From assembly GCF_004010195.1 (NCBI RefSeq), contig NC_057716.1:19437396-19501395 (forward strand): a stretch of DNA of 64,000 nt. The letters run 5' to 3'. The first letter of the stretch is position 1. Every line of letters begins with the position of its first letter. This stretch comes from Chiloscyllium plagiosum (taxonomy: Eukaryota). The notes beneath the pieces are model-generated. The model saw only the letters and a program-made list of their open reading frames with translations, was not told the DNA's origin and made no database searches. Below are positions 21,841 to 56,634 of the stretch, piece after piece. Position numbers and translations under genes: made by a program.

Positions 21841-22106
21841 GAATTATGATTCCTCTTTAAATGGTCACAGGGCAGTTTTCTTTACTTACGTATTTTTGTT
21901 ACTCCCACCTTTGATCATTTATTTAAGGCTAATTTTGCTCAGTTGCTTGACAAGATTAGACAAGACCTTCAAAGATGGGAGGCCTTTCCGATCTCTTGGT
22001 TAGGTCGAATAGCCCTTATCAAAATGCATGTCCTTCCTCATCTGTTATATCCCATTGGAATGCTGCCTCTGATGTTTCCCAGGCAAAGGTTGTGGAGACT
22101 CACTGG

Positions 22107-22387
22107 TTGTTGTGGTTCTGTTCGCCGAGCTGCAAGTTTCTGTTGCATTCGGCATTCGTGTAGGAACCGGAGTTGTTCGTATGTGGCGCTTAGTCGGTTA
22201 GCGCAGGATTCCCATTTCCTGGCTTGTCTCAGCGTTTCTCGTCCGTAAGTGTTCAAAGTTTGTGCGAAGATTTGTAGCTCGGGTGCTCGTTGTTGTGGTT
22301 CTGTTCGCCGAGCAAAAACTTCCATTTCAGCGAACAGAACCACAACAACGAGCACCCGAGCTACAAATCTTCGCACAAACTTTGAAC
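22107..22387. mobile_element. Penelope-like element terminal-repeat remnant nested in L1
   Basis: Same termini as the 54883-56118 element. Minus frame 'YGRETLRQARKWESCANRLSATYEQLRFLHECR' resembles a PLE ORF N-terminus. Flanked by duplicated ACTCACTGGTTG. Confidence 0.8.
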
Positions 22388-24399
22388 TCACTGGTTGGTT
22401 TAGTTATTTTATTTGGCATCACAGGCAGCCCTTCATTAAGCTTGCCAACTTGCAGTTACCCCCAAGGGTTGTGGGGAGTAGACTTTTCAGATATTAAGAG
22501 ATACCAGCTAAGTCCCCTTCGTCCTTTGTGAGCGACTGGGCTTATGAGGACCCGAGATCAATATAGTTGGATATTGAGGCTTCCCAGGAAAAGTGTCCCC
22601 TTACTAGGCTGTTGTTTATGGATAAGATGGGGACAGTTACGGAATATTGTCAGAATCCAACCAGCATTAATACGGTCAAAGCAGAGAGAGCAATGTGACA
22701 GAGCAAGGGCAGTTTATCTGAAACTTCCTTTCTTACCCCTATAGTTTAATGCCAGAATTTTGGCCAGGGATAATGGACCCTGGATTCAACCTGTGGGCAA
22801 CTAGGGGAGTGCCCTGTTTGGGAGATCTATTTAAGGGGGGGATGTCACAATGTTCCTTGACCAAATGAGCCGCACTTATGGATTGCCCAGCGCAGATCTT
22901 TATCAGTACTTTCAGGTTGGGAACTTCTCCAAAAAACGACTACGCTTTTGACCAACGAACAACATTGAGCGACTGTGTGAGGTCTGGGAGCAAGAGTGGG
23001 AGTGGAGATTCCCTCAGAGACATGGAGGACATTTGAGAAAATGCAAGAAAGGTCTCGAAGTGCAACAGAATACACACCATGCTGTTGAAGGTTCTTCATT
23101 GGGTTCATTTGGCCCCAGATCGTCTTGCAAAATTCAAAAAGGGAGCATCGCCAATGTGCCCCAAGTACAAAAAACGCATTGGTACCCTCACTCATTGTTT
23201 GCAGTCATGCCACAAGCTTTGTAGGTACTGGAGCACTGTGGCAGGAGTAATAGAGAGGGCCCTGGGGACTGAAGGTAAGGTAGACTCAGTTTCTCTGGTC
23301 TTGGGCCTGCCGAATTTATTTTCCTTAGACGCACGTGGGAAAAAGCTATTTAACATTCTCTCTTACAGTGCGAGGAAGACCATTTTGATGAGCTGGGTGT
23401 CTGAGAACCCTCCAGGCCTGTTGGAGTTGCACAAGTTAATTATGGAATACATCCCTTTGGATTTCCTCACAAACATGAGGCACCACAAAACGGAACTTTT
23501 TTTTAAATAAGATATGGCAGCCCTCTTTGAATTATCTTGAAGCACATTTGTCTGCCATTTTAATTAGGGCCTTTGTTTAACCATGATGATTAGGTTTAGT
23601 GAGCCTTGTACCCTGGGAAGAAGAGTCCCAAATAAATATGGGTGTAATAATTAATGCTGCTGAAGGTTGGGAGCTTTGGTATGGTTGCACTGAGTGGTGT
23701 TATTTATTTATGTATAGATTTGTTGAGAGTGTAGTTATGATTTTTTTTGTACAGTAGGGTAGTAGCTTATTGTAATGGTTATAATTTTAAATTGTTTTAT
23801 TTTTGTAATTATATAACTTTGTAAAGAAAACAATTTCTCAATATAAATATTTTTTTAAAAAGTCACAACTTACAACAATTGAAGGGGAAAAGTGAACTGA
23901 CTATCTTCAGGTGTCAGCTGCTTTACAGCACAACAGAAACACAGCTCCTTCCTTTCCAGAGGTCCAACTGCTCCAGCTACCTGAGAGCCAAACACCAAGT
24001 TGTCAGCAGGCCTGAGGTCTTTACTATCGCTAACTGAACATTAGACTACAAACCAATCAGCTACTTGTTGTTGCCCAAATCTTCATTCACACAGTGCCGG
24101 GGACCAGCTCACCTATAACGAGGTATCCCCTTGCTGCTTAAACCGACAACTGTGTTAACAATAATTGTTGTGTAACTTGTTTTTAAAAAAGAAATCTGAT
24201 AACAATCCTTCGCTTCTAAACCAGTCCCTTTCCTATTTCAGTTCACAATAAAACACGTGGAACAATCAGAAAGACAAGATGATCTTTACAGAGGGTTGGA
24301 ATGCCACAAGCAGGGTCCACTTGCTGCAGCTGAGCTAAACAGGAGTCAAGGAACAAAAATAGAAAGAAAGATCTGGGGTGGTGAAGCAAGCTATTGGGA

Positions 24400-26100
24400 A
24401 AATTCCAGAGTTATGTCTGTGATTGAGTATTAGATTGCAGTTTTCAAAGTCCAAGGGAGCAGTGGCCCAGGAAAGACATAGGATTTCCGCCTTACCAACC
24501 AGGTTATTTAATCAGACAGACAGAGGAAATTGTAGGGGATTTAGATAAGTTCAAGGTAATCAGGCAGAGTCGATGTGGTTTTGCAAAAGGGAAATCAGTT
24601 TGAACCAATCGATTGGAATTTGTTGAGGAGGTAACCATGGATAAAAAGGAACTGATAAATAGACTGGACTTCAATTTTCAGAAGGCATTTAACAGAGTCA
24701 CACATTAAAAGAATATTGAGGAAAATTAAAACTCATGTGTAGAGGGTAACGTGTTGGCATGGATAGAAGATTGGCTAGACGTGAGGAAGCAGAGAATAAG
24801 TCTAATGAGCCTTTTTCAGGTTGGCACCATGTAACAAGTGGTGTGCCACAGCAATTGGTGCTTGGATCGTTTACGATTTATATAATAATTTGGATGAAAT
24901 GTTAGAAGGTACACGGCCAAATTTGCCAATAATGCAAAGACAGGTGGGAGAGTAAATGGTGAAGATGACGCAAAGAGGGCACAAGATGATGTCAAATGGA
25001 GTATTATGGAGGAAAAATGTGAAACAGTTCATTTGGTGACACGAATAAAAAGTGTACTGTAAATGATGAGAAATTGCAGAGCCTTGAGGTACAGAGGAAT
25101 TAAAATCCTAGTGCATGAAACACAAAAGGTTTGAATATAGGCATAGCAAGTAATTAAGAAAGCTAATAAAATGTTATCATTTATCAAGAAGGGAACAGTA
25201 CATTACATTACCTTACAGTGTGGAAACAGGCCCTTCGGCCCAACAAGTCCACACCGACCCGCCGAAGCGCAACCCACCCATACCCCTACATTTACCCCAT
25301 ACCTAACACTACGGGCAATTTAGCATGGCCAATTCACCTGACCTGCACATCTTTGGACTGTGGGAGGAAACCGGAGCACCCGGAGGAAACCCACGCAGAC
25401 ACGGGGAGAATGTGCAAACTCCACACAGTCAGTCGCCTGAGGCAGGAATTGAACCCAGGTCTCTGGCGCTGTGAGGCAGCAGTGCTAACCACTGTGCCAC
25501 CGTGCCACCCACGGAACAGAATACATAAACAGGAAAATTATGCTTCAGTTATATTGGGCACTGGTTGAGACCACATCTGAAGTACCTTGCACAGTTTCAG
25601 TCACCTTTTTAAGATCAGAAGGATGCAAATATGTTGGAAGCCGCTCAGACACGGTTCACCAGACTAATACCTGGAAACTGCTTTATGAGTAATTATTGGA
25701 CAGGCTATTGCATTTGTTGGAGTTTGGAAGAGTAACAGGCAGTTGATTGAAACAATGAATAACTTGAGGGGTCCTGACAGAATAGGTACAGAGAGGATCT
25801 TATGGAAGAATCTAGAACTATAGGTCACTGTTTAAAAATCAGGATCACCCATTTAAAACAGAAGTGAAACTAAATGTTTTCCCCAGACAAGGTCATGAAT
25901 CTTTGGACCCTTCTTCCTGAAAAGATAGTGGAAGCAGAGTCCTTGAAAGTTTTTATGTAGAGGTAGGTAGATCCTTATGATGCAAAGGACAGAGAGGCTG
26001 TCAGGGTAGGTGGGAATGCAGACTTGAGGTCACAATCAGACTGGACCTTATTGAATAGCAGGACATACTCAAAGGCCTGAATAGCCTCCTCATTTACATT
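24400..26100 (+). mobile_element. Decayed CR1 LINE interrupted by a HE1 SINE
   Basis: TTTCAGAAGGCATTT, AGTGGTGTGCCACAG, CCAAATTTGCC RT-derived motifs. Confidence 0.7.
25199..25512 (-). mobile_element. HE1-type V-SINE, young, with GGAACAG target duplication
   Basis: Full head, V-domain and tail; GGAACAG at 25192-25198 and 25513-25519. Confidence 0.92.
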
Positions 26101-26759
26101 TTGCATGATAGTGTGCATTGAACCTATAGTTCATCAAGGGCCCACATGGACAGAATCTTGTATCCCAGTGGAAGACAGTACATGAGGAATGCGTAACCCA
26201 ATGGTGTCAGTACACGAGGAAGCTGTCCCCCTGTGGCAGTCAGTATGTGAGGAACCCATGTGCACTGAGAATTAGTACAAGGAACCTGCCGTCCTTTGAG
26301 AGTCAGTACCTGAGGAAGTTAATCTTTCATCAAGGAGCTGGAACTCGCAGGAACTTAAGCACTTTGAGTGAAACAGCCAGGTGTACAAAGAGGAATTAAG
26401 TGAGCCATGCTGCAAGAGATCAGTTCCACAGGCTATGGGAACAGGAAGTTACATGGCAAAATGGGGGAAAAGAGGTAAACTCATCAGAAATGGAAAGTGA
26501 TTTTGGAGAGATTCCTGTAAAGAATAGGTTGTAATGTATAAAATGCAGAATAGTGTTGTCAGTCTTATTCAGATTGTTAGCTGCCTACTCAGTAACATTT
26601 ACTTGATGATTTTGTTCGATAAAGTCTTAAAACTTGTAATCTTCTGGCAATGGCTTTGAGTTGGTTAATGGGAATTCAAATGTCTTTTAAAAAACAATTG
26701 ACCTGTGCTCTAACTAGACAGGGATCCAGACAGCAGGTGACATTACAATCTGAAGATCA

Positions 26760-27630
26760 ATGATCGGCTCTCACTGTCACAGATTCCTTTGCAACAGTGA
26801 GAGTAAGAGACTGTGTGGGTTTTCTTTGGGGGGGGTGGTGGTGAGGGATGGAGAGAATGGACCCAACAATGTCTTCCTCTGATGGCCACTTTGGCGTGCG
26901 GTTTCATCATGCTGTGCATAGACCCTTGGTACGTAAACATCATGTTACCAGGTGCTGAAGTTGTACCTTTCCGAGGTTGTGGATCCAGTCGTATTAGTTG
27001 GACTGTACCATAACACCTGTGCTTCATGGAAGAGACTGTACAGAATACCATCTTTGACCACAAGTCCATCAGGCAATGGTTAACACATAACATCCTTGAG
27101 GCCTCGCAGGGAAACGAGAGGGTCAATCCTGTCAGATGGTTCCAGGAGCAGACTGTCACAAGTTATGTGGCAGGATACCACATCACCAGAACTTTCTAAC
27201 CAAGACATAGCTTGACCTTATCAATCAGATCATACAGGCACACGTGGATTCTTTCTGCCACTTTAGAGACTGCTGCTGTGGTAAAGAGACCGGCTCACAT
27301 CTCCACCTCGAATGTGCTTTTGCAAAGAAGGTCTGGAGATGCAGTGGTTTTTGTCAATGTTTACCATGAGCAGGATTGCATAATGCAGAATTCTGTACTC
27401 TACCAGCTGTTACCATGGATGTACACAAAGACAAACATCTACTGCAGCTGAAAGGATGATCCACTCAGTGACAGACACTCTTCAATCTGCTCGAAACGGA
27501 TTGATCTGCCGGTGCAAACAGTTGACTCAAATGAGTGTTGGAGACTGGCACATTCCATGCTGAAGGACACATTAAAAACTTGGGACAGCCATCACAAAGG
27601 CACAGTGAGGAAAACTACTATCTAAAGCCT
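26760..27630 (+). mobile_element. Decayed Tx1/L1-like LINE 3' region
   Basis: Remnant zinc-finger-like C-terminus (CACATCTC..GAATGTGCTTTTGCAAAGAAGGTCTGG, 'HL..ECAFAKKVW'); heavily broken. Confidence 0.45.
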
Positions 27631-29529
27631 TTCTGTCCTGATATCCTGACAGTCTGTAAACTTATAGAATCCCATGTACACCTTATTGGAATTCAAATAA
27701 TTTCAGGTCATAAATGTTCTGCACTACATTTACAAGTCACTTATCACAAAGAAGAAAAAGTGTGATCTTTGGACTGTGACCAGACTAAACCTGTATACTG
27801 GTTTTTCAATTGAGCAGTTTCAGTCCCAAGTACCAAGTCCATTACACTTTGTAAAAATTACATTCAGTCCACCTCAGTTCAGTTATTTCATATGCCATGG
27901 CACTGGGGCAGATAATTATGTTTAAGAAGCTGTATTTCAGAAGTGCATTGTGTCAGGATATACATACTCTCAATTTATTACGGTACACAATCTGACAGAA
28001 AGCAGTGACTCAGAAAGCTCGAGACAAGGTAGTTTGCAAGATTGATAGAGCAGTTAATCATGGTCCCTGATCCTCATGACACACAATGCACTGCTTGAGT
28101 GAGCTGGGGTGTATTTTCCATCAGTACTAGGTTTGAAAACAGTCTGAAGAGCTATTACTGCTGACGATCACAGAAGCGTGACTGAAGCAGATGATCCAAA
28201 TGAACATGCCCTCCAGCATGAGTTACAAACATGCTGCTATCCATAGACAACTGGGCAGCTTCGTGACTTTAAGATGCACAATCACACATCCACAAACACC
28301 AACCGGTTTAACAGCTGCTAGGGTCAGTCATGCAATGCTGAAGGGAGACACTGTAACCAAGCCAGAAAACAAAGGCAAAACCCTGGCAGTGATGAGAATC
28401 ACAGGACCTTACAGGAATGGCAGACAGGTGCTAATGTTACCGGACATGCAATCGGAAACCTGGGCTTGGGCTGCTTAATCCACTGAAGTTATTTTCAGAA
28501 AAGAGTAGACAGCCGGGCTCAAGCTCAGAAAGCATAGCATCACCAAATGACTAAAAGGAGACCATTCGATCCATCACGTCAAAAGGAGGAATTCACCTAG
28601 TGCTACTCTCCCACTTTCTTCCCATAACTTTTCATAAATCGCTTTTTTAGATAATAATCAAATTCCTTCCTGAATGCCTCATTTTAAGTTCAAATCCCAC
28701 CATGGCAGCTGGGTGAATTCAAGCTCAATTAACTAAGATACCTGGAATTAAATTCTAGCCTCATAAGAATCACAAAGCTATCAAACTGTCATTTAAAACC
28801 AGTTGGCTCACTAATTTCCTTCAGAGAGGGAAGGAAGTCTGCTACCTTTATCTATTCGTGCGCATGTGACCCCGGAACCACAGCAATTGTGGCTGGCTCT
28901 TTACTTGCAGTTGCCTTTTGAAATGGCATAGCAAGCCACTCAGTTGTACCAAACTAGTATAAAGAAAGCAATGTGAATGCATCTACACCTCACAGACTGC
29001 AGCTGTTCAAGAAAATAGCTCATGATCAAATGTAATGAGGGATGAGCAATAAATACTGCTCTGGTCAGCAACGTACACATCCTACAAATGGAGTTAAAAA
29101 ACAACTCCTCAAATTGCAATATTGTCCAATAAAACAAGAAGGTTTAATTTCCACTGCACTCTTCCTGCCACAGTTGTTACAGGTGTGACAGTGTTTCCAA
29201 AAAACAATTATTAAATCGAACACCCAGTCTGGAAATTCTGTTGTATCCAACCTCTTCTCTTTTAAATAAACATTAAACAGGTCAGACAGCCCATGGTGAG
29301 GCACTGCAACAAAGTTGTCTACAGAAACTAATATTAAAATCTTATCAAAATGTCATTACCGCAGTGATGATGGACCCTAGCCTCCCCAGAAAAAAATGCC
29401 ACCCTCCATACAGATTAAATATTACACAAATGATCATACAGTGACATGTGACATAGGATTCAATTCACACACAGTTCAACTTCTGATTCACCCTGCATTG
29501 CAGGGTACCACTGAACATTTCAACACAAC

Positions 29530-30200
29530 ATATGTGTATAAATCATTGAAGTTAGCAGGACAGGTTAAGAGCATTATTAATAAAACATATTGGATCTTGA
29601 GAGTTATCATTAAGGGCAAAGAGTACAAAAGCAATAAGGTTATGTTAAACTTGTATAGAATTTTGGTGAGACTTAACTGGAGGATTTTCTCTAAATCTAG
29701 ATCCTGTAATTTAGGAAGAATGTGAAGCAATGAAGAGGTTTCAGAAAGGATTCATTAGAATGAGGACCTTCAGTTATGTTGACAGATCAGAGAAATAGGA
29801 ACCGTTTTCTACAGAGAGACAAGAGATTGAGGATGGAGGGATTTAAAGTCTGACAGAGCAGATAAGGAGAAGCTGTTCCCATTAGTGGAAGGATCAAGAA
29901 CCAGAGAATTCAACAACTTATGGTGTTTGGCAAAAGAAGCAATAGCAACATGGGAAAAATCTTTTTCCACACGGTTGGTGGTTGGGATCTGAAATGTACT
30001 GCCCAAGTATGCATGAAGGCAAATTCAGTCAAGGCATTAAAAAGGGAAGTGAACTATCATCTGAAGAGAAAGAATGTGCAGGGTTATGGGGAGAAGGCAG
30101 GGGACATGGCACAAGGTGAACTGCTCTTTTAGAGAATCAGCATAGAAATGGTGGGGTCGAATAGCCTCCTTATGTGCTATAACCATTCTCTGATTCTGTA
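29530..30200 (+). mobile_element. Old CR1 3' fragment
   Basis: 'EYKSNKVMLNLYRILVR', 'LKRKNVQGYGEKAG'. Confidence 0.75.
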
Positions 30201-31261
30201 TCAAGACACTGGGGATTTAGCTCTGAGTGACACCTGCAGCTGCTAATCTGCCAGTCAATATCCTGAACTAGTGCCTAAGTTTTGCAGAAGAATCAAAAAC
30301 CTCAGCCACTGAATGAGGCTGGTGTTATAGAGAGGGCAGCATGACATCCAAACCCAGGTTTGACACACTGGGAAAATGAACAACGTGCCGCATGTAGCAC
30401 AAGGGTAAATAACTGGCAAGTTGGTAGCAAGCACAGCTCTCTCCCCACTGCTTATGGATTAGCAGGAAGAGAGTTCATTTCATCCCATCAGAAAACTGCC
30501 ACCTCAGCTTCACCATTTAGAATTAACTTCCGACATTAGAAATCTCGGTTGGCCAAAAGGCCTGTTTTTATGCGGTTATTACTCTATGATTCTATTCTAT
30601 CACTCTGAACCCTCACAGAAATTGGAAAAGCAGGCCGATTGTTACAAGATGTTTGATGCCCAATGTTGTAAAGGAATAAGTAAATTCCAAGGGCCTGCAT
30701 TTAGACCAGGACTGAGAGTTGACAAGAGGGGGAAAAGGAGAGGAAACCGGAGGCAAATTACTAGCAATTCTCAAGATGCCTATATAACTTCCAAAGCACA
30801 GCTAGCTCCCTCATTACAAGAACAAACCCATGCAAATGAGAGGTCAACACAATGAGGTCTGGATCATGGAAACAGATGACAGGAATATGTCGATAACATC
30901 ATGTTACAAGCTGCCTGCACGATAGTCCTCCACATCATAGCTGTGGAAGTGACCTCTGTTGCTGCCTCACCACTCAGAGTCCCGAATGGGAATCAATAAA
31001 TCACTTTCAATGTGCAGATTGCAAATGAGAATACAGAGTGTGACAGAGTTAAAATATAAATTATAAACTCAGCAGCACACAGTCACCACAGAAGGGCATT
31101 GAATGTGCACAGTAAACAGGAAAAAGTTGGACATATGTCTTTAAACAATTTAGAAGATTCAAAATCGAGCCCAGATATGTGTAAGTACATACCTACACAT
31201 ACAGGACTATAGACCTGTACTCGCAAGATTACAGAGCTGTACTCAGACACACACAATTACA

Positions 31262-31531
31262 GGTCCACAGAAAGTCTCGTACACAGGATTACAGGCAGAT
31301 GCTCTCTCTCTCTCACACACACACATGCACTACTGCACACACGCTGCAGACAATACATACAAATGACTTCAGACCGCAAAGTTGACAAGGTTCCGGTCCA
31401 CAGAAAGTCTCGTACACAGGATTACAGACAGATGCTCTCTCTCTCTCTCTCACACACACACATGCACTACTGCACACACGCTGCAGACAATACATACAAA
31501 TGACTTCAGACCGCAAAGTTGACAAGGTTCC
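31262..31531. repeat. Near-perfect tandem duplication of a ~133-bp unit containing (CT)n(CA)n
   Basis: GGTCCACAGAAAGTCTCGTACAC...GTTGACAAGGTTCC occurs twice, differing mainly in microsatellite length. Confidence 0.92.
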
Positions 31532-32615
31532 ACATAGTAGACTAATTAGCCAAGTTAAAGCACATGGGATTCAGGGTGAGCCTGCCAATTGGATACAAAA
31601 TTGACTTGATGGTAGGAAACAGAGTGTGGTGGTGGAGGATTGTTTTTTGGACTGAAGGCATGTGACCAGCGGTGTTCCAAAGAATCAGTACCCCGTCCAC
31701 TTTTGTTTGTCATTTATATAAATGATTTCAATGGGAATATAGGAGTCAAGGTTAGTAAGTTTACGGATGACACCAAAATTGGTGGTGTAGTGGACAGTGA
31801 AGAAGATTATCTAATATTACAAAGAGATCTTGATCAATTTGGTCAATAGGCTGAGGAGCGACAGATGGAGTTTGATATTGCATTTTGGTAAAACAAACAA
31901 GAGCAAGACTTATACAATTAATGGCAGGACCCCGGGTAGTGCTGTAAAACAGAGAGACCAAGGGTCTCAGGTACATAACTCTTTGAAGTTTGCATTATAG
32001 TAGACAGGGTGTTTAAGAAAGCATTAGCACACTTGCCTTCGCTGCTCAGACTTTTGAGTATAGGAGTATATGGAGTCATGTTGAGGTTGTACAGGAAATT
32101 GGTATGGCCACTTTTGGAGTACTGTGTACAGTCTGGTTGCCCTGATATAAAAAGGATATTACTAAATTGGAGAGAGTTCAGTAGACATTTATCAGAATGT
32201 TGCCAGGAATGGAGCATGAGTTATAAGGATAGGCTGGGATTTTTTCCGCTGGAGGGAGGAGGCTGAGGGGTGATCTTATAGAAGCTTATAAAATCATGAG
32301 GGAGTCTTTTCTCTAGGTTGGGGGGAGTTCAAAACTAGGGGCCATATTTTTAAGATGACAGGGCAAGTTTTAAAATGGACAAGGGGGGGCAACTATTTTC
32401 CCCACAGTGTGGTTTGTGTGTGGAATGAATTGCCAGAGGAAGTCGTGGATATAGGTACAGTTACAACATTTAAAAGACATCTGGAAAAGTACATGAATAG
32501 GAAAGGTTTGGAGAGATATGGGCCAAACGCAGGTAAGTGAGACTAGTTTAATTTGAGAAGGGTCAGTTTGGACTAGTTGGACAGAGGATCTTGTTTCCAT
32601 ACTGGATGACTCAAT
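31532..32615 (+). mobile_element. CR1 LINE 3' part
   Basis: 'PLLFVIYINDF..VSKFTDDTKIGGVVDSEE', 'VWNELPEEVVD..FKRHLEKYMNRKGLERYGPNAGK'. Confidence 0.88.
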
Positions 32616-32834
32616 GCACACACAAATGCACTAAGAAGTCCAGACCAACACACAGACACAGGATTTAGAAGCATGAGGTGCACAGAGTGAATACAGACAT
32701 GCACACTATATTACAGTTCAGCACATGTGCATGACTGGATTAGAGCTACACACTTCCAGATTACAAAAGAAACACACACACACCCATAAACATGATTACA
32801 GACCCAAGGTCACACATATATACTAGACTTCACA

Positions 32835-33280
32835 CCAACACCTCATCTCCAGCAAATTCCTAGATGATTCACAGAACAGATGGCAAACTGGTTAATGAAT
32901 ACCACATTTAAAGCAAGGCCACGCCAACATCATTGAGCTCCAATGTGCAAAAGACACCTGTCTGTGCACCCACTCAGAGCCTGAGCTCCAGGTCATTGGG
33001 GACTCCATCTCTGAAGCACACAAGAAAATGGGTCTTTCACTGAACATCCATAAAACTAAAACCCCACTTCCAAACAGCTCCAAAAAGCATAAGAACACCC
33101 ACATTTGGTTAAGGCCAACTGCGACAGATTGGAAAATGTCATTTTCCTTATGTCTGGAGCCTTCTCTCCATGATAGAGGCATGGACGACCAAGTCAGTCA
33201 TCACCTCCTATGTGCCATCTCAGCCTTTGACTGACTTGAGAAAGAGTATTTGAAGACCAGGATCTGAAGCCAGAGACACA
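32835..33280 (+). mobile_element. Probable decayed RTE-clade LINE fragment
   Basis: 'MGLSLNIHKTK' and 'AISAF' resemble RTE RT segments; very degenerate. Confidence 0.45.
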
Positions 33281-44519: not shown

Positions 44520-44680
44520 AGTTGACAACCCGAAGCGGCAGATTCAAACCACTATAAATGCCGGAGGAAACATCACAGAAGCGCTTCACAGGAGGCTCCC
44601 AAGCACTGAGGATGTCACCTAGACAGGGGACGAAACGTCTGCAACACAAGTTCCCAGCTTGGCGAACAGAACCACAACAA
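44520..44680 (+). mobile_element. Penelope-like terminal repeat (solo)
   Basis: Closely matches 55920-56080: ACCACTATAAA..GGAGGAAACATC..AAGCGCTTC..GGCGAACAGAACCACAACAA. Confidence 0.85.
44603..44642 (+). ncRNA. Minimal type-I hammerhead ribozyme motif in a PLE terminal repeat
   Basis: GCA-CUGAGGA-U-GUCACCU(AGAC)AGGGGAC-GAAAC-GUC^-UGC: conserved core, stem II hairpin, palindromic ACGU stem III, GUC cleavage triplet. Confidence 0.75.
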
Positions 44681-45864
44681 CTTTGACAAGTGATCTAATT
44701 TTAGTTCAAAATTTTAAAAGGATGTTCTTAAGTTCTCTGCCTGAAGGCAGATTTGACCCACAAAGTCACCATCTCTGCCATGAGTGGAGGAAGGAGGCAG
44801 GTCCTGAATTCACCCCCATCAGAACAGGAATCAAACTCCATTTCACTAGCACAACCATCCGGCTTTCTGAGCAAAGTGGAGTCAGTGCAGCTGTGGCAAG
44901 ATGCACATTTACATGTTGTAGGCTGGAGCTAATGACAACCATGGTTGAGGCTCCAATTTCTTTCCATCCCATGACCAACTAGGTTCACCTCCCAGTCTTA
45001 CTACCTACCATTGGCATGTGTTGGAAGGATTTGTGGGTTGGTACTCATCGTAACTGGCCACGTTATCGGCTCCCCTTTCTTGACAATCTAATCCTGGGGT
45101 GGGAATACAAACTGGTAGCTTCTGGTTCAGGCAGGGACAAGACTGCTGGGATTCCATGGAGTTGACCAGGCAAAACTGTTCCTTGTGGAAATTGAAATGA
45201 GCGCTCTACTTCATTTAGGAGTGAAACCAGTAAGTATATTATCATAATCTCAAAGTGTGTAAACTTGGAGCTCATTCCTCAAAAAAAAATTAATTGAAAT
45301 TGGAGGAGAAAGATTGCTTTTGTGTGTAAAATGATCAAAAGAAAAAAGTTTGTGGAGTTAAGTACAGATTAGGCATGTTCTGATTGAGACTGTTGAACCA
45401 TTCAGTCAGTAGAATCGCTGCTTCCTGCTCCATATATTTTATATAGATCTGTAAACATGATAGCCACCAAGCTGTTCTATTCTATCTCTAGTCTCTAACT
45501 CCATTCCTCTCCAATCTGACTGTGTCTGAACCAGACCATTTGCAATCTTTCTTTCCCCATCCTCTCCTCTCCAAATGCAGAGCCCTCATGATTGTCCCTC
45601 TCCCTCCTGCAACTTCCAGTGAGGTGGATTGTTGCCAGTTCAGACAAATCTGTCATTTGCTTTTTTTATTGACATTCCTTGCCTTGTACTGGTTCAAAAC
45701 CCTGCAATCCCACTCGAATGCCATGTGAGAAATTTGCCTTCAGTTAATACGAGAGACCTGACCATCAGTTGTTCAAAGTACACATGACTGCTTTGTGAAC
45801 TATGCCAGAATTAACAGTTCACATCCAATCTTAAGACCATTTTCTTTGTTGTCTTTTCTAACAG

Positions 45865-46021
45865 TAATGAAGCCTGGCGGTTCAACGGAGGCTTTCGTAA
45901 ACCTATCACCTTCACCAATGTCTTTTCTCGAGGCTTCAAATGGGGATTTGCAGCATTTGTTGTGGCTTTGGGTGTTGAGTATGCACTATTTTCTCCCAAG
46001 AAAAACGGAGGACATCACTAA
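45865..46021 (+). CDS. NDUFB3: NDUFB3 coding exon 2 (to stop; total 89 aa)
   Basis: tctaacAG|T AAT GAA..; [63 protein letters not shown] is diagnostic. Confidence 0.97.
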
Positions 46022-46126
46022 TGAATGAAGACTGAAGACTTTGAAATTATGTACAACTCTCTATCTCTCCTTTCCAGTCAGTGAGCTGTAACCAATGTAT
46101 GAAACAAGAAGCAAATGTCTTTACAG

Positions 46127-46132
46127 AATAAA
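46127..46132 (+). terminator. NDUFB3: Probable NDUFB3 polyadenylation signal
   Basis: AATAAA ~105 nt after the stop codon, followed by T-rich sequence. Confidence 0.7.
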
Positions 46133-47169
46133 ATAATTAATTGAATCAGCACTTATGCTCAGTCATGTTCCTTTTGAAGTCTTTTCACCATTGATATCAG
46201 CTCCTATTATCTGTTTTCACCTGGTGACTGCCCTATACTTGTTTCGTGTGTTCTTTTTGTTGATTGAGAAGCATGTGACGTTTTCTCTGGTGCGCACACT
46301 TACGAGTTATCTTTGGCGCGTTCCTATTTCTCATTTGCCTGCTGCTTCTTGGAGACATCATCAAAAAATAATTCAGGATCCATAATAGGAAGTCTTATCA
46401 CTTTTTTCTTGATTTTTTCACTGTGCCGTCAGGCTGCTTGTTTAATGTCCAGTATTGGATAAGGTACAAGCACCTCCAGTGAAACATTGGGAAGCCTTGT
46501 GGCCATTGCCTCAAGGTGTCTTTGAATCACAAAATATCAAGTAATTACAAAGGCCAATGAAAATATTGGCTTTTATTGCAATGAGGATGGAGTATAACAG
46601 TGGGAAAGTTTTGCCCCAGCTGTACATGTATAGTTTTGGTCTCATTAAGGAATAATACTTGCATAGCAGACTGTTCAAAGAATAATTAGTTTGGGGTTGC
46701 CTTATGAGAAAGGTTGATTGGGTTGGGCCTGTACTGTTTGGAGCTGAGAAGAATGAAAAAGTGATATTTTTGAAACATAAGATTCTGAGAGGGTAGATGC
46801 TGCAAGGATATTTGTGGAGGGAATCTATAACTGGGGGCATGGATTAAAAATAAAGGGTCTCCCATTTAGGAGACAGATGAGGAATTTATTTTCTTGGAGG
46901 CTGGGTTGTCTTCTCTCCAGAGAGTATCATTCAGGACTCTGGGTTATTAGTCCAGTAACACAATAAGTTTGCTACTGTGCCTGAAACAAAAGCAGTAAAA
47001 TTCTGAGCTGGCAGCATCTGTATGAGAAAGCAGAGTTAAAGTTTTGATTTTGACCACTCTTCAGAACCAATCTCTTTTTTTTCAGATCTCCAGCATCTTT
47101 GCATTATGTTACAGTACCTGCTGAGCTCTCCATGTTATGTGGAGGTGAGGGGCATGACTTGGTATTTGA

Positions 47170-47680
47170 AGAGTCTATGTTGGAGGGGATGAGGTGTAAA
47201 GGGGCAGGAAGGATGAGGATGTGAAGGTTGGGAATATATAAAGGGATGGGGGGTATATGAGGGATGTGGATATAGGGGTGGTGGGGGTATATGAGGGATG
47301 TGGATACAGGAGGTTTGGAGATATATAAGGGTGAGGGTATATGAAAGATGGGGAGGGAAGAGAACATATGATGGATGGATGATGGTATATAAGGGAAGGG
47401 GATGTGGGTACAGGAGGATTGGGATTATGTGAGATGAGAATGCTGATACAGGAGGGTTGGGAATATAGAAGGGATAAAGGTATATGAGGGAAGAGGATGT
47501 GGATACAGAAGGGTTGGGGATATATAAAGGGATTGGGGTATATGAGGGAAGGGGATGTGGATAGAGGAGGATTGGAGTTATGAGAGATGGGAATGCAGAT
47601 ACAGGAGGGTTGGGGAAATAGGGATGAGTGAAGGGGATGTGGATACAGGAGGGTTGGGAGTATATAAAGGATGGAGATGT
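47170..47680. repeat. G-rich purine minisatellite upstream of the CFLAR promoter
   Basis: Recurring GGGATGTGGATACAGGAGGGTTGGGAATATATAAAGGG-like units with strong G/C strand asymmetry. Confidence 0.8.
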
Positions 47681-47699
47681 GCTATACACTGCATGTGGA

Positions 47700-48130
47700 C
47701 GGGAATTCTGTGTGGGAAGACAGGGAGTAAGTGGGCCATGGTGTTTAGGAAATACCCCAATGAAGACCGTTCCGAGGGAGAGGAGATGTTTTTACGATGT
47801 TCCTGCGCTCCGTTCAGACAGTCCGCCCGCCCAGAGCCTGTGGTCAGAGAGCGGCGGGGGGGAGCCGGCTCCCGGCCCCGGCCCCTGCCCTGATCATAAC
47901 GCGATGCTTTCACTTTCACTTTCTCCAGGGGACGAGAACAGGTGATCGGGGCAGGTCGGTGTGTGAGGCCCGGAATCCGGCCCGCGATTAACCACTACCG
48001 CAGGAGGAGGGCCTGAGCCTGGGCCTGGGCCCGGGGTTGGAACTGGAACAGAGGCCGGGGACTGGGCCTGGGCCCAGGGCTGGAGGAAAGCCTGGGGTTG
48101 GGCTGGAGCAGAGATCAGGGCCTGGAGCTG
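47700..48130 (+). promoter_or_regulatory. CFLAR: CpG island: probable CFLAR promoter and non-coding exon 1 (donor after 47941)
   Basis: CpG-rich; kB-like GGAAATACCCC (47748), GC boxes, IRF-type GCTTTCACTTTCACTTTC (47906-47923), donor ACAG|GTGATC. Confidence 0.65.
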
Positions 48131-48865
48131 GAGGAGAGGCTGGATGTTTGGAAACCCCACCCCCACACCAGGAGATGGTATTTGTAGGAGATGACGAAGT
48201 TAAATTGATCAAGGTGTTGATGGTTAGAACTTGTGGCAGAGCACAGAGGATGACACCATAAAGTTAGAGTGTCAGGGAAAGGAGGTGGATGGTGATACAG
48301 CACAGAATAGAGGGGGTGAAAGGCCTCCTCCATACCTGGCAACACTGGAATCAGATCAGTAGCAATGAAAGCAACGAGGAGAGTATAGTTTAAGATTACA
48401 CTGACATCCCAAAGGGACAAATGGCCTAGGATGCGAGACAGTTGGTCTCGGAGACATGTCAGCCTTTAGACCTGTTGATTTTCTTTGTGCTGTTTCTCTA
48501 GTGACATTGTTTATTTTCAGTTTCTCCCTCTTGCCCCTTGATTTTCTACTATTGTTGGGATGCTGTCTTCAGCTGCTTCATCAGCGAATTTCCCTCCATT
48601 GTAAGATCAAAAGTGGGAATGTCTGCCCATGATTGCATAATGTTTAGCACCATTCAAGACTTCTGAAATACTGAAGCAGTACACGATCAAATGCAGCACA
48701 AACTAGGCAAGATTCTGGTTTTGGGATGAAAAGTTGCAAATAACATTTGAAATAGATAAGTGCCAGGCAATGACCATTTCCAGCGAGAGAATCTAACAGT
48801 TGTCCCTTGACATTGACACCCCCACTACCAAGTTCCTGTGTGTTACCATTCCAGAAATTGAAGAA

Positions 48866-49823
48866 TCAGTGCTGGGTCCACCGCTTTTTGTCATTTATAT
48901 AAATGATTTGGATGTGGATATAGTAGGTTTGCAGATGACACCAAAATTAGAGGTGTAGTGGACAACAAAGAAGGTTACCTCAGAGTGCAATGGAATTTTG
49001 ATTAGATAGGCCAATGGGCTGAGAAGTGGCAGATGGAATTTAAGTTAGATAAATTCATTCTGGAAAGGCAAATCAGGGCAGGACTTATACATTTAAGGGT
49101 AAATTCCTGGGGAGTGTTGCTGAACAAAGACATCTTGAGGTAGAGGTTCATAGTTTCTTGAAACTGGAGTCGCAGGTAGATACGATAGTGAAGAAACCGT
49201 TTGGTATGCTTGTCTTTATTGGTCAGAGCATTGAGTATAGGAGTTAGGAGATCATATTGTGCCTGTGCAGAACATTGGTTAGACCACTTTTAGAATATTG
49301 TGTACAGTTCTGGTCTACTTCCTATCGGAAGGATGTTGTGAAACTTGAAAGGGTTCAGAAAAGATTTACAAGGATGGTGCAGGGTTGGAGGGTTTGAGTA
49401 TAGGGCGAGGCTGAATAGGCTGGGGCTGTTTTACCTGGGGGTCAGAGGTTGAGCGGTAACCTTATAGACGTTTATAAAGTCATGAGGGGCATGGATAGGG
49501 CAAATAGACAAGGTCTTTTCTCAGGGGTGGGGGAGTCCAGAACTGGAGGCCAAAAGTTTAGAGCAATAGGGGAAAGATATAAAAGAGACCTAAAGGGCAA
49601 CTTTTTAATGCAGAGGGTGGTGCATGTATGGAATGAGTTGCCAGAGGAAGTGATGGAGGCTAGTACAATAACAACATTTAAAAGGTATCTAGATGGGCAT
49701 ACGAATAGGAAGGGTTTAGAGGGATGTGGGCCAAGTGCTGGCAAATGGAACTAGATTAAATTAGGATATCTGGTCGGCATGGACTGAAGAGTCTGTTTCC
49801 ATGCCATACATTTCTATGACTCT
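48866..49823 (+). mobile_element. CR1 3' fragment nested in another LINE (~48560-50435)
   Basis: 'FADDTKI', 'GNLIDVYKVMRGMDR..QRVVHVWNELPEEVMEA..GPSAGKWN'; CTATGACT tail. The flanks continue a different LINE ending AAATGGTGGCCCAGCTAGCAACAC. Confidence 0.85.
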
Positions 49824-50574
49824 GTATAAGTACTGTGGCTACAAGAGCAGGTCAGAGGCTAGGAATCTTACAGTGAGCTACTTACCTCCTGATTCTCAGA
49901 AGCCGATCCACCATCTACAAGGCATAAGTTAGAAACATGATGCAATATTCCCCACTTGTCTGGACGACTGAAGCTCCAACTCAAGCTTGACCCCATCTAG
50001 GACAAGCAGCCTGCTTAATTGGCACCACGTTCACAAAAATCCATTCCATTCACCAGCAACGCTCAGTAGCAGTAGTGTGCACCATCTACAAGATGTACTG
50101 CAGAAATCTACCAAGACTCCTTGGACAACACTTGAAAAACCTACAGCCACTACCATCTAGAAGGAGAAGTGCAGCAGATATATGGGAACACATCTTTGCA
50201 TGTTCCCCTCCAGGCCATTCATCATCCTGATTTGGAAATATATTGCCATTCCTTTATTGTCGTGGGGTCACAGCCCTTGAATTTCTTCCGTTATGACATG
50301 GATCAAATCCTACAGGACAAGGACTGCAGGGGTTCAGGAAGGCGGCTCACCACCAAATTCTCAAGGCAACTTGGAATGAGCTGTAAATGGTGGCCCAGCT
50401 AGCAACACCTACACCTTGTGAATTAATTAAAAAAACTCTTTGATTGTCTTCTACTATGAAGACATATAGTTTACTTGTTATGAAGGAGGAGGCTTATGGC
50501 AATGGATTTAGATGAGAAATGTAGGAAGAAGCTTGAGTGGAGCCATAAACATTGGCATCACTGGTTCGACCAAA

Positions 50575-51230
50575 CAGTAGAGTCACAGCTAGATAGGATA
50601 ATGAAGAAGGTGTTTGGTATGCTTTCTTTTATTGGTCAGAGTATTGAGTACAGAAGTTGGGAGGTCATGTTGCGGCTGTACAGGACATTGGTTAGGCCAC
50701 TTAGAGTATTGCATGCAATTCTGGTCTTCCTATCAGAAAGATGTTGTGAAACTTGAAAGGGTTCAGAAAAGATTTGCAAGGATGTTGCCAGGGTTGGAGG
50801 GTTTGAGCAATAGAAAGAGGCTAAATAGGTTGGGGCTGTTTTCCCTTGGAATGTTGGAGGTTGAGGGGTGATCTTATAGAGGTTTACAAAATTATGAGGG
50901 GCATGGATAGGACAAATAGACAAAGTGTTTTCTCTGGAGTGGGCGAGTCCAGAACTAGAGGGGTATAGGTTTAGGGTGAGAGGGGAAAGATATAAAAGAG
51001 ACCTAAGGGGCAACTTTTTCTCACAGAGGGTGGTACGTGTATGGAATGAGCTGCCAGAGGAAGTGGTGGAGGCTGGTACAATTGCAACATTTAAAAGGCA
51101 TTTGGATGGGTATAAGAATAAGAAGGGTTTGGAGGGTGCTGGCAGGTGGGACTAGATGGGTTGGGATATCTGGTCAGCATGGACAGTTTGGACCGAAGGA
51201 TCTGTTTCCATGTACATCTCTATGACTCTA
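50575..51230 (+). mobile_element. CR1 3' fragment
   Basis: 'IEYRSWEVMLRLYRTLVRP', 'LERVQKRFARMLPGL', 'RVWNELPEEVVEAG'. Confidence 0.9.
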
Positions 51231-53005
51231 ATTGGCCTATTGGTGCCATGTATCTGTGCCATGTATCTGTCTACTGTTAATTATCTTGGGAGGCTGGGGT
51301 TCACGCGATGAGGATGGTAAGCATATGTTGCATAGAATGGGTTTAAGAAGACAGCAGAGAAATGGGAAATTTCAATTGCCAGAGTCTAAAATGTGTATGT
51401 CCCAATAGTGCAGAGACTACAAGGTGAGCAGTGAGGTTGTGAACACCCTGGACCTTCCACACCATAGGCTTTCCCCACACTGCTCCCAGCAGTATAAACT
51501 GGTTGAGTAAAATCTCTTTGTTCTCCAGGCAATGGTTTCCCTTTGAACTGAGTATCAGACCCAAGATAGGTGGACCTACAATTTGTAGCAGATTCAAATG
51601 TGCAATGTCAGAGAAGACGCTGTCACAGAAGTAGTGCGTCATTGAGAGTCCTTGAGCAGAGTGCAGTTAAACGTCAATACCAACAAGAAGTAGGGCAGCT
51701 GTAGGTTTGTCATAGTTCTGAGGAATGAGCTGAGATCAATTACTGAGTTATTGCTGAGAAAGCTGTTAGTGAGAGGAGGAGGAGCTGGGATAGATTTAAA
51801 ATTGTAACAGAAAGGATAACCACACATGAATATTGATGGGGATAAAACAAACCATCACCAAAATGGATAAATGAGGAAAATCTAACTGTTTAAAAGTTAA
51901 GAACAAAACAGGAATGCTGTTATAGTGATAAGGATATTACATTGAAATACAAATTGCGATGAATAGTAGGCCATTTTGCCTCATGGCCTCCTCCAGTTTT
52001 CAGTAAAGTCTTGGTTGATCAGATTATGACTTCAACCCCAGTTTCATGCCCCGTTGATAACCTTAGATTCTGGACTAACAAGGGAGTCACTCTACCTCTG
52101 CATTAAAAGTATTCAATAACTCTGTCTTTACTGTTCTGTAGGAATGTTCTCACTAGGGAGAGACGAGCTTTGGGAGAGGGGTAAGCATTTACTGAATCAG
52201 GGCAGAGGAAATTTGGGAGGAACGGAGATGTGGAGAAGTGTAGGGAGTTAGCACATATTAGATTAGATTGAAGCAATACAAAATAGAGGGAAGGGAGAAA
52301 GATCGAACTGAACAATAGAACATGGTTAAGTATTAATTAAATTTTAACTGTCTAATTTAGGACATGGTAAAGATTTCTCCACAGTGTCTGCATCAAGCAC
52401 TCCCAGGGCAAAAGGTGTGGGAGTTAGGTGCACGGTTAAGCTTGCTCTGTAATGTCCATTAAATAGTCTAACCTAGAATCAAAAATCTTAATGAAGAGTA
52501 TGGAAACATTTATGTATCCCCTTGCTAATGTTCTCCACCTTTGTTGCTCTCACTGGCTGGAGTCTGTGGCCATCATTCAACCTGCTGTACGTCACTCCAA
52601 ATGACCATTATTCCTGACTGTGCTTCAGCAGTGTACGTCGGTCTGAAATGTGAGTGAAGCTTTGATAAGCTAGATGGCTGTGGGCTGTTGATATTGAACT
52701 GCAACCATGACTGAGAGGAGATGAGCAAGAACAAGTTTAGAATGGAACCTACGACATTTCTCTTAAATCTAGAGTTGGTTGTACAACACTTGCACAACAT
52801 TTTGGTGTGTTCTAAACCAAAAAGCATTAGTGATTAATTCATATTTTTCTCCTTGTTTAGATCTTTGTCAGAGTTTCGTTTTGTGCTGGAAAAGAGAAGT
52901 CAATGGCGTCACCAGACATGAGGTCACAGTACAATGTTATAGGCTGGGGAAATCGCAGTTTTCTGTAAGGAATTCTTGGGGCTGCTTCCTTCAATATTCA
53001 ACAAT

Positions 53006-53307
53006 ATGTTCAAGCAAAATACTATGGATATCAGACGACTGGCATTGCAAATAGCTGATAAACTGTCGAAGGATGAAAGTGCCACCTTAGTGTTTTTGTG
53101 CCTTGATATTCTGAAAGATTATTTAAATATTGGGGAAGTGAAAGAGCTGTTTGAGATACTGTCCAAACGGAACCTGCTGAGGATTGAGCTCCTAAGTGAA
53201 CTGCTTTATCGAATAAAGAGGTTTGATGTTCTGAAAGGATTGAAAGTTGACGTGAAGTGTTTGGAGAGACATTTGAACAGTGGTAAAGGATACGTATCTT
53301 CATACAG
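53006..53307 (+). CDS. CFLAR: CFLAR/c-FLIP first coding exon, DED1 (exon starts at 52861; alternative ATG at 53024)
   Basis: MFKQNTMDIRRLALQIADKLSKDESATLVFLCLD..ELLYRIKRFDVLK..YVSSY(R), matching c-FLIP ELLYRVRRFDLLK; acceptor tgtttAG at 52860, donor AG|GTaaa; position next to NDUFB3 fits conserved synteny. Confidence 0.92.
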
Positions 53308-54920
53308 GTAAAATCAATCTCTGTGTAATGGGATGGGAGTATGAATTGCCTGTGATGGAAGTTTGGCTTCTCCAGTTCTTGCTCCCCAGATTTAGCAGAC
53401 AACATTTGGTAACAACTGAATGAAGCAATTTTTTGGCTTTAATCCATGACAGGGTGTAATAAATAACACCTCATAAATCAGCATTGTAGCAAATCTTATT
53501 CCCCAGGCTATGGTACTAAAATGACCTTTTATGTTTTGGCATCTCAATGTCACCTTGTGTCAGCGGTGGGGCCTAAAATGTTATTAATGTTTTTGTTTGA
53601 TGGAGCATGGGACCAATTTGAGGGTCAGTCATTTCGTGGGAGCAGAAATTGGCCATTCAGCCCTTTGAACTTTTTCTACCATTCATTTAAACCATGGCTG
53701 ATCTGTGTCTTAATACTTTCGACCTGCCTTAGTTCCTTATTCTTTATTTCTCTTGGTGAAGTTGATTCCCAGCTTTAAAAGCCATTTTGGAAAATGCATT
53801 CCAGGTTTCTGCTACCCTTCATGTCAAGACGTGCTTCCCCTGAACACCCTGGCTCTAGTTTTAACGTTTTTCCCCATTGCTCTGGATTTTCCCACCAAAG
53901 GAAATATCTTCTGTTTCTGTCTGTACTGTATTAACTCACAGAAATGTGGAAACTCAAGGCAGCAGTAGGCCATTCAGTCCTTCAATCCTGCATCTGCCGT
54001 TCAGTATACTCATGGATGCTTCTCTATCTGAATGCAATTTTCCTGCTTTCTCCTCATATGCCTCGATGTCTTTAAAATCTTTTCAAAATTCTCTTGAATA
54101 TATTCAGTGACTTGGCCTCCGCAACTCTGTGTGGTAGTGAATTCCACAGGTTCACCACTGTTTGCACCCTCATCTCAGTCTTAAATGATCTGTCCTGAGA
54201 CTTAGTCCCCCAGTACTAGGTTCCCCATAATGGGAAATCATCTTCCCTGCATCTCGTCTATCTAGTGTTTTAGAATTTTATCCAAATTTCACGTTTCAAT
54301 TATCTAAGTTTCAATCAAATCCCATTTCTCCCTTTAAAAAGTTTAGTGATTCCAGGCCCAGTAAATCCAATCTCTCCATATGGGACAGACCTACCATCCC
54401 TTATATCAGATGGGTGAACCTCTGCTGCACTTTCTCTATGACAAGTATATCTTTCCGGAGGTAGGAAGATCAAAACTGCATGCAGTACTCCCGGGTGTGG
54501 TCTCACTAAGGCCCTGCTATAAGACACCTGTACTTCTGAACTTAACTCTGCTTGCAGTGTAGGCTAATCTACCATTTGCCTTTGTATTTGCTTGCTGTAC
54601 CTGTCTGTTTACTTTCATTGACTGGTATACGAGGAGAATCAGATCCCTTTGTATATCCACATTTCCCAACATATCATTTAAATAATATTCTTCCTTTCTA
54701 CTTTACACACTGAAATGTATAACTTCACATTTAGCTACATTATACTGCAAATTTATAGCTATATATTGTGAATAGTTGGAACTTAAGTACTGATCCTTGA
54801 AATATCCTACTAGTCACTGCCTGTCACTCAGAAAAATAACCATTTATTCCCACTATCTGTTTCCCGTCTGTCAACCAATTTCTTGTTGTGGTTCTGTTCG
54901 CCGAGCTGGAAGTCTTTGTT

Positions 54921-54960
54921 GCAAACGTTTCGTCCCCTGGCTAGGCGACATCATCAGTGC
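54921..54960 (-). ncRNA. Minimal hammerhead ribozyme motif (inverted terminal repeat)
   Basis: Minus: GCA-CUGAUGA-U-GUCGCCU(AGCC)AGGGGAC-GAAAC-GUU^-UGC. Confidence 0.7.
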
Positions 54961-55085
54961 TTGGGAGCCTCCTGCGAAGCGCTTCTTTGATGTTTCCTCC
55001 GGTGTTTATAGTGGTCTCACAAACCAACAGCCATGCTCAGACAACAACTCACCAGAACGAAGGAACCGATACCCAACATGAGCAA

Positions 55086-55856
55086 NNNNNNNNNNNNNNN
55101 NNNNNNNNNNNNNNNNNNNNNNNNNNNNNNNNNNNNNNNNNNNNNNNNNNNNNNNNNNNNNNNNNNNNNNNNNNNNNNNNNNNNNNNNNNNNNNNNNNNN
55201 NNNNNNNNNNNNNNNNNNNNNNNNNNNNNNNNNNNNNNNNNNNNNNNNNNNNNNNNNNNNNNNNNNNNNNNNNNNNNNNNNNNNNNNNNNNNNNNNNNNN
55301 NNNNNNNNNNNNNNNNNNNNNNNNNNNNNNNNNNNNNNNNNNNNNNNNNNNNNNNNNNNNNNNNNNNNNNNNNNNNNNNNNNNNNNNNNNNNNNNNNNNN
55401 NNNNNNNNNNNNNNNNNNNNNNNNNNNNNNNNNNNNNNNNNNNNNNNNNNNNNNNNNNNNNNNNNNNNNNNNNNNNNNNNNNNNNNNNNNNNNNNNNNNN
55501 NNNNNNNNNNNNNNNNNNNNNNNNNNNNNNNNNNNNNNNNNNNNNNNNNNNNNNNNNNNNNNNNNNNNNNNNNNNNNNNNNNNNNNNNNNNNNNNNNNNN
55601 NNNNNNNNNNNNNNNNNNNNNNNNNNNNNNNNNNNNNNNNNNNNNNNNNNNNNNNNNNNNNNNNNNNNNNNNNNNNNNNNNNNNNNNNNNNNNNNNNNNN
55701 NNNNNNNNNNNNNNNNNNNNNNNNNNNNNNNNNNNNNNNNNNNNNNNNNNNNNNNNNNNNNNNNNNNNNNNNNNNNNNNNNNNNNNNNNNNNNNNNNNNN
55801 NNNNNNNNNNNNNNNNNNNNNNNNNNNNNNNNNNNNNNNNNNNNNNNNNNNNNNNN
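55086..55856. other. Assembly gap (771 N)
   Basis: Run of n. Confidence 1.
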
Positions 55857-56001
55857 AACTCCATCAACAAACACATCGACCTGGACCCAATATACCAACC
55901 ACTATAGCGGACAGCTGAAACTGACAACCAGAAGCGGCAGGGACAGACCACTATAAACACTGGAGGAAACATCAAAGAAGCGCTTCGCAGGAGGCTCTCA
56001 A

Positions 56002-56041
56002 GCACTGATGATGTCACCTAGCCAGGGGACGAAACGTTTGC
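56002..56041 (+). ncRNA. Minimal hammerhead ribozyme motif (3' terminal repeat)
   Basis: GCA-CUGAUGA-U-GUCACCU(AGCC)AGGGGAC-GAAAC-GUU^-UGC. Confidence 0.72.
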
Positions 56042-56634
56042 AACAAAAACTTCCAGCTCGGCGAACAGAACCACAACAACGAGCACCCGAGCTACAAATC
56101 TTCGCCCAAACTTTGAACCAATTTCTTGATCCTTGTCAATGTGTTACACCCTATCCCATCTGCTTTGATTTTGCCCACTAACCTCCTGAAAATCTAAATA
56201 CACTGGTTTTGATTCTCTTCAATTAATGGGATGTTATTTGTGCCATCTTTTGTGAAGACAGAAACAAAGAATGTGTTTAATTCTTCTGCCATTTCTTTGC
56301 TTTCCATTATCATTTCTCTGTCCTCTGACTGTAAGGAACCTACATCGTTCATTACTAATCTTTTTCTCTTCACATATTTATAGACGTTTTGCAGTCAATT
56401 TCTATGTTTCCTAAAATTTTAATCAGAAACTCTATTATCCCCTTCTTAAATAAACTACTCATCCTCTTTTACTTTAACTAAAATACTCCCAGTCCTCAAG
56501 TTTGTTGCTTTTTCTCACAGTTTTTGTGTCTCCTCAATGGATTTCATGCTATCCCTCATTTCTTTCATAAGCATTGTCTTTCTTCTATTTTTGAATGAAC
56601 GATTGTTGTAATTCAAAATTTTCTAATATTAGGA

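Follow-up and report, generated by a model that had tools for sequence, protein, structure and literature searches.

Introduction

Among the described Penelope-like elements, the closest to the family studied here is PAc, a Poseidon element of Anolis carolinensis, whose protein cuts and extends both DNA strands in vitro, starts reverse transcription at two sites, one on either side of the tail, and is predicted to form a dimer (PMC11167929). In Adineta vaga, the accessible text of PMC3846280 and PMC8557442 describes Pen2, Pen2a and Pen3a insertions with an inverted truncated arm, a tail at one end only and a short target duplication, and these traits are also reported in the part of PMC2377424 available to us. 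In the portions of PMC3846280 and PMC8557442 that we consulted, the inverted pseudo-long terminal repeat (pLTR) and the tail are ascribed to self-priming or to endonuclease resolution, while the completion of insertion, the inverted ends and the one-sided tail are stated as open in PMC11167929 and in the accessible text of PMC8557442. Here we analyse an element of this kind in the shark Chiloscyllium plagiosum, starting from a window of 64,000 nt (NC_057716.1, positions 19,437,396 to 19,501,395) that carries two of its insertions, each with an inverted pLTR arm inside a short target duplication. The results point to two nicks about 12 nt apart, each priming reverse transcription at one of two start sites in the element RNA.

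A related arrangement is known from L1 twin priming, where both nicks prime complementary DNA (cDNA) and an inverted 5' piece comes to lie within one target duplication. In L1, annealing of the second primer takes place at variable internal positions and there is little overlap between the two pieces, whereas the shark family has a fixed second start and two arms copied from the same RNA region, and its duplication lengths span a much narrower range.

Results

Insertions nearly always end at two different fixed points of the element

Positions in the open reading frame (ORF) are numbered from the ATG, and the tail comprises positions 69-106. A 36-nt word from the pLTR end and the tail has 5,437 exact matches in the 3.56-Gb genome. 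The sample comprised 390 tail-anchored loci (the first 100 matches on contig 1 plus subsets selected by arbitrary letters 50 nt downstream), from which 20 duplicates were dropped. Sorted by the end of the inverted arm, the remaining 370 loci include 168 that end at the upstream start site (site 1, positions 60-76), 4 that end at the tail end (site 2), 33 that end elsewhere, 134 that appear 5'-truncated and 31 that run into a gap or an edge. The two ends of an insertion nearly always stop at different fixed points, the tail end and a point about 38 nt upstream of it; the fitted start positions are ~105-107, with a shoulder at 100-104, and 67-68. Among 30 loci chosen from the site-1 side, one of which turned out to carry the tail, the end falls in the tail in 16, within it in 1 and at site 1 in none; 11 are truncated and 2 belong to other classes. 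A site-1 end with a 14-bp duplication and without a tail arm also exists (L293).

Target duplications indicate a nearly fixed stagger

Duplications were called at a score of at least 8.5, so that only those of at least 9 nt are callable. They accompany 150 of the 168 site-1 insertions, compared with 7 of 1,680 shuffled flank pairs; the corresponding values are 0/4 and 0/40 for site-2 insertions and 18/33 and 0/330 for insertions ending elsewhere. Several of the 18 site-1 insertions without a called duplication resemble mutated 10-13-nt repeats. At 13 of 117 loci without a nearby duplication (L019, L094, L098, L119, L132, L163, L175, L212, L217, L240, L290, L327 and L369), a farther site-1 end with an intact 11-16-bp duplication was found, with other DNA between the arms, which may have been taken up during the insertion or have entered later. 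A paralogous repeat spans the target in 43 of 152 cases, and 30 of these 43 show a single target copy with a net indel of at most 1 nt.

The maximal duplication lengths (n = 150) are 9 nt in 4 insertions, 10 in 5, 11 in 14, 12 in 32, 13 in 42, 14 in 26, 15 in 11, 16 in 10 and 17-21 in 6, so that 114 fall within 11-14 nt. Because the terminal bases may belong to the target or to the element, the true stagger lies between the core length and the maximal length. A stagger of 11-13 nt is compatible with 140 of the 150 insertions and with 117 of the 119 in the clean set, from which 31 with non-contiguous junctions or poor register had been dropped. A plain stagger model places 89% of its mass on 11-12 nt (bootstrap 76-97%), compared with 25-38% for simulated broad staggers, and a fit with pairing and cut-preference terms assigns ~0.18, 0.42 and 0.35 to 11, 12 and 13 nt (~95% together), with the mode at 12. 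We infer a nearly fixed stagger of 11-13 nt, mode 12; in target-primed insertion, as is well established, duplicated target sequence means that the nicks leave 3' overhangs.

Both junctions show excess overlap with the element, and the target bias is weak and symmetric

The mean junction overlap is 1.58 nt at site 1 and 2.17 nt at the tail, where recomputing it on the left copy, the one used for the null sets, gives 2.05. The null values for tail and site 1 are 0.75 and 0.73 for random targets, 0.97 and 1.16 for permutation within an end, 0.89 and 1.04 for swapped ends, and 0.92 and 1.00 for resampled columns, and none of 1,000 null sets reached the observed overlap. The 34 junctions upstream of position 106 show an overlap of 2.38 nt versus 0.80, and a per-base pairing bonus improves the fit by 84-88 log-likelihood units, also when a cut-preference matrix is included.

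Of the 150 duplications, 82 have A as their first base and 97 have T as their last. Just outside them, read on each cut strand, T makes up 41-51% and G 6-8% of the second and third bases on either side, compared with 28% T far away. The fitted nick context is T at the primer end (65%, with G at 3%), then any base, then T or a pyrimidine for three bases. The target bias is weak and dyad-symmetric, without a dominant trinucleotide. The strict ATT cut word of the anole element was not seen here; the commonest trinucleotide occurs at 13 of 238 nicks. Where the tail runs through position 106 (238 loci), it is followed by A in 184, by G in 30, by T in 24 and never by C, so a primer strand ending in G apparently does not occur at this register.

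The two arms are mostly unequal and always of one subfamily

The arms were compared in 98 simple two-piece insertions, leaving out 21 with gaps and 31 with extra pieces. They are unequal in 79 of the 98 pairs; of 95 site-1 arms, 61 exceed the tail arm in length, by up to ~990 nt, and 34 fall short of it. The lengths are mostly independent (Spearman 0.32), and site-1 arms that reach 5-40 nt further upstream than the tail arm number 20 versus 7.2 expected. Two pLTR subfamilies coexist, differing in the loop of the hammerhead-like motif and the cleavage triplet (GUU, GUC), and both arms belong to the same one in all 101 arm pairs. Divergence between arms is 2.8 per 63 nt within an insertion versus 3.6 between different insertions of the same subfamily, and 9 of 67 rare variants are common to both arms.

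The window insertions carry target duplications, but the family follows no AC-N7-TTG rule

Both window copies are ordinary insertions of this abundant Penelope/Poseidon-type retrotransposon. Their parts, and a third copy, are as follows.

22098-22109, plus strand: insertion 1, left target-duplication copy, 12 bp, whose last 4 nt also match the element
22110-22147, minus strand: insertion 1, inverted arm starting at site 1 (ORF position ~66-68)
22148-22313, minus strand: insertion 1, second inverted piece (partial tandem) with pLTR end, tail and first ORF codons
22313-22385, plus strand: insertion 1, direct arm, with the tail (ORF positions 69-106) at 22348-22385, ending at site 2
22386-22397, plus strand: insertion 1, right target-duplication copy, whose first 2 nt also match the element
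54873-54885, plus strand: insertion 2, left target-duplication copy, 13 bp, whose last 3 nt also match the element
54886-55017, minus strand: insertion 2, inverted pLTR arm starting at site 1, 97% identical to 55945-56079
55018-56115, plus strand: insertion 2, direct arm, with the end of the endonuclease region, a gap of 771 N (55086-55856), the pLTR and the tail (56079-56116)
56002-56041, plus strand: hammerhead-like motif in the pLTR of insertion 2, overlapping the ORF start codon at 56011
56116-56128, plus strand: insertion 2, right target-duplication copy, whose first 3 nt also match the element
44523-44681, plus strand: third, older, 5'-truncated copy of the same pLTR, with its end near site 1

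Because the gap lies inside insertion 2, the link between its two ends depends on scaffolding. That they belong to a single insertion is supported by the 13-bp match and by one paralogous target that lacks the insertion (73% identity, net indel -1). No target duplication was seen by eye at the older copy, whose end reads as site 1 joined to the last tail bases, as if the interior of the tail had been lost between two short matches.

The first-pass annotation of the window had proposed that the two insertions share an AC-N7-TTG geometry around a 7-nt core, produced by a fixed staggered cut with microhomology priming or by an endonuclease preference. The direct repeats are where it placed them, 12 bp at insertion 1 and 13 bp at insertion 2, and they are true target duplications in kind, as the frequency in comparable insertions shows. 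The shared core holds for insertion 2, where 3 nt overlap the element on each side and leave 7 nt. It fails for insertion 1, where 2 nt overlap on the right and 4 nt (GTTG) on the left, leaving 6; the common N7 arose from where the element end had been drawn, for which the natural reference past the tail is the inverted piece at 22148-22313. A fixed AC-N7-TTG geometry has virtually no chance of being right: both window insertions can be written in this form, but none of the 150 sampled duplications fits it; 30 begin with (A)AC, 3 end in TTG and 12 have a 7-nt core. Across the genome, N7-TTG follows a tail that ends in AAC in 39 cases, two of them in the window, versus 1,700 with a base other than T after N7, a share of at most 2.2% that equals the 2.2% TTG background. 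The annotation had named a broad spread of duplication lengths and a lack of AC/TTG enrichment as evidence against it, and here the broad spread is not seen while the enrichment is absent. What survives of its proposed causes is the near-fixed stagger, the excess overlap at both junctions and a weak symmetric cut preference; on the reading proposed below, the window's AC and TTG would just mark two targets among those that pair better.

Partial tandems occur in the window (22148-22313) and at L422, L423 and L426. In these short insertions another pLTR end is joined to the first 100-140 nt of ORF sequence that lie beyond the tail, which could reflect template switching from one unit of a tandem transcript to another, or deletions. 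Two chimeric joints that fuse this element to other repeats recur at four loci each (L107, L175, L196 and L212; L075, L094, L289 and L369), which suggests that the source copies were themselves chimeric and were propagated. An element end with its flank is repeated 113-512 bp apart at C15:16818344/16818856, C16:19492598/19492727, C21:8723774/8723889, C25:46366739/46366852 and C27:47721223/47721358, and these may be local duplications or assembly artefacts. The upstream flank of L069 is a long short-period satellite beside the insertion, open in all six frames over ~3.5 kb.

The element resembles endonuclease-bearing Penelope/Poseidon elements

A long copy (L191) matches the reverse transcriptase (RT) family RVT_1 (E 1.3e-9), contains YVDD and encodes RT and endonuclease (EN) in one 436-aa frame. 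The DKG motif is present as LPADKGR in L425 and L433, and downstream of the RT lies a GIY-YIG-type domain with CCHH (VVYKIPCKDC..HYIGQTGR and HADDKQH), for which the Pfam GIY-YIG match is weak and below the cut-off (E 0.059). The pLTRs of the element are partially tandem or inverted, and one end carries a tail of 30-40 nt. Judged by domain order, a PAc-like layout and no extra zinc knuckle seen between RT and EN, the element probably belongs to the EN+ Penelope/Poseidon clade. An extra zinc knuckle between RT and EN is a Neptune trait. A comparison with PDB sequences gave no Penelope-like structure, only weak matches to group II intron RTs. A 45-bp tandem array derived from the endonuclease region of the element was observed at L431:5443-5999.

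Hammerhead core words are present in 174 of 255 copies, with a GCA/UGC stem I in 167 and GUU or GUC as the triplet. An Rfam scan of 54800-56200 returned no hammerhead match, only a chance microRNA match, and the unconstrained fold of the pLTR end is no better than shuffled sequences (z -0.31).

Discussion

We propose that two nicks ~12 nt apart each prime reverse transcription at one of two start sites in the RNA, after which the arms are joined, and we give this reading a probability of roughly 65%. The enzyme would nick both DNA strands, with 12 plus or minus 1 nt between the nicks, and leave 3' overhangs. One overhang would prime at the tail end (ORF position ~106, sliding to 100-105 if a few bases pair better there) and the other ~38 nt upstream, at position ~67-68, with 1-2 terminal bases of the overhang usually pairing with the A-rich RNA and 1-3 paired bases helping. 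The two cDNAs would then be joined centrally, each serving as template for the missing strand of the other. A protein dimer holding one RNA would account for the strict pairing of sites, for the shared subfamily of the arms and for the slight lead of the site-1 arm. A more specific version, in which a dimer on one RNA makes the nicks 12 plus or minus 1 nt apart and two RTs travel 38 nt apart in convoy, the rear one displacing the cDNA of the front one, is tentative, and we regard it as falling somewhat short of even odds.

Several observations weigh against the two-nick proposal. All steps are reconstructed from old, decayed genomic copies, and an intact full-length ORF was found in none of 16 loci fetched for it, owing to gaps and stops. 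The nick positions are model estimates, exact only in the 3 of 119 insertions with zero overlap at both ends. Only 36 of the 134 apparently 5'-truncated copies carry a duplication (2 of 1,340 shuffled pairs), although the farther ends described above recover 13 more loci, and 13 of the 43 spanned targets show a net indel above 1 nt. The arms end within 15 nt of each other in 19 of 98 pairs (6.1 expected), as fold-back would also give, and later deletion at palindrome centres could have made arms unequal. PAc initiates without homology in vitro (PMC11167929), and 16 of 119 tail junctions and 25 of 119 site-1 junctions have no overlap at all; these junctions imply that pairing is optional, in agreement with that homology-free initiation.

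The near-symmetric pairs, of which 8 end within 5 nt versus 2.1 expected, belong to the case for a single priming at the tail end, in which the cDNA folds back, copies itself, stops or is cut at site 1 and joins the second overhang through a short match, with the tail left as a scar of resolution. This account directly explains the strict one-tail pairing and the same-subfamily arms, and it has precedents in the self-priming inferred from palindromic joints in Adineta vaga (in the accessible part of PMC3846280) and the endonuclease-mediated resolution proposed for the tail (in that of PMC8557442). We consider it unlikely. One fold-back of a tail-primed cDNA cannot produce a longer site-1 arm, as seen in 61 of 95 pairs and by up to ~990 nt; moreover, 79 of 98 pairs are unequal, only 9 of 67 rare variants are common to both arms, a tailless site-1 insertion with a duplication exists and RT starts at both sites in vitro (PMC11167929).

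If instead the two primings used separate RNAs, or one protein acted twice in sequence, with no dimer on one RNA, the largely independent arm lengths would follow, and GIY-YIG homing enzymes do cut sequentially as monomers (PMC2761285, in the text available). Separate RNAs would also allow pairs of like sites and mixed subfamilies, but site 1 is paired with site 1 in 0 of 16 cases, site 2 with site 2 in 4 of 172 and the subfamilies are mixed in 0 of 101, and the excess of site-1 arms just ahead of the tail arm (20 versus 7.2) speaks against independent templates, making this a quite improbable account. It is slightly more doubtful still that the overlap arises only from an endonuclease that favours T-rich DNA resembling the A-rich RNA sites, with no base pairing in priming. 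Primer-terminal T at ~65% and G at 3% of the fitted nicks fit such a preference, composition alone raises the expected overlap from 0.75 to ~1 and initiation in vitro needs no homology (PMC11167929); however, none of the 1,000 sets made by permutation, end swapping or column resampling reaches the overlap seen here, start sites that are shifted track the target sequence and the pairing term is still favoured beside a cut-preference matrix.

The element family and its layout are known, and the measured stagger, target symmetry and microhomology were not found in the literature searched. Target duplications of 10-12 bp accompany Penelope in Drosophila virilis. PAc resembles the shark family in its RT with a C-terminal GIY-YIG domain, in a hammerhead-type motif over the start codon, putative in the shark family, in AT-rich targets and in a 30-40-nt tail between two start sites in A/C-rich RNA (PMC11167929). 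It shows no difference in start site between strands and no primer-template homology (PMC11167929), whereas the shark family shows strict site 1-site 2 pairing and excess overlap. The PAc study names a 5'-ATT-3' cut motif, and its main text, as far as it was available, gives no duplication length or nick spacing (PMC11167929). The Adineta vaga insertions are single examples with duplications of 8, 9 and 10 bp (in the accessible text of PMC3846280), compared with 150 events, an 11-13-nt stagger and a symmetric bias here. GIY-YIG homing endonucleases, of the same nuclease family, also leave 3' overhangs, but of 2 nt (PMC2761285, in the part consulted), and one may speculate that 12-13 nt corresponds to ~2 nt plus one helical turn, fitting two domains on one face of the DNA. 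No duplication length distribution, nick spacing, in vivo microhomology or target symmetry was found in the literature on Penelope-like elements, within a scope that excluded the primary Drosophila virilis work, the 2005-2006 reviews and the anole supplement. Target geometry is absent from the accessible text of PMC8969392, PMC9977147 and bioRxiv 10.64898/2026.07.22.740005, and a search for literature combining Penelope with twin priming and GIY-YIG found none.

With thousands of copies in one genome, the family provides numbers that can be tested in the existing in vitro system: a nick spacing of 12 plus or minus 1 nt, one start per nick, optional pairing of 1-3 nt that shifts the start, and a symmetric T-rich cut context. 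If a dimer on one RNA indeed works as a convoy, the inverted pLTR, the one-sided tail and the target duplication would all be products of one event, and Penelope-like elements would represent a third integration geometry beside LINE priming and integrase joining.

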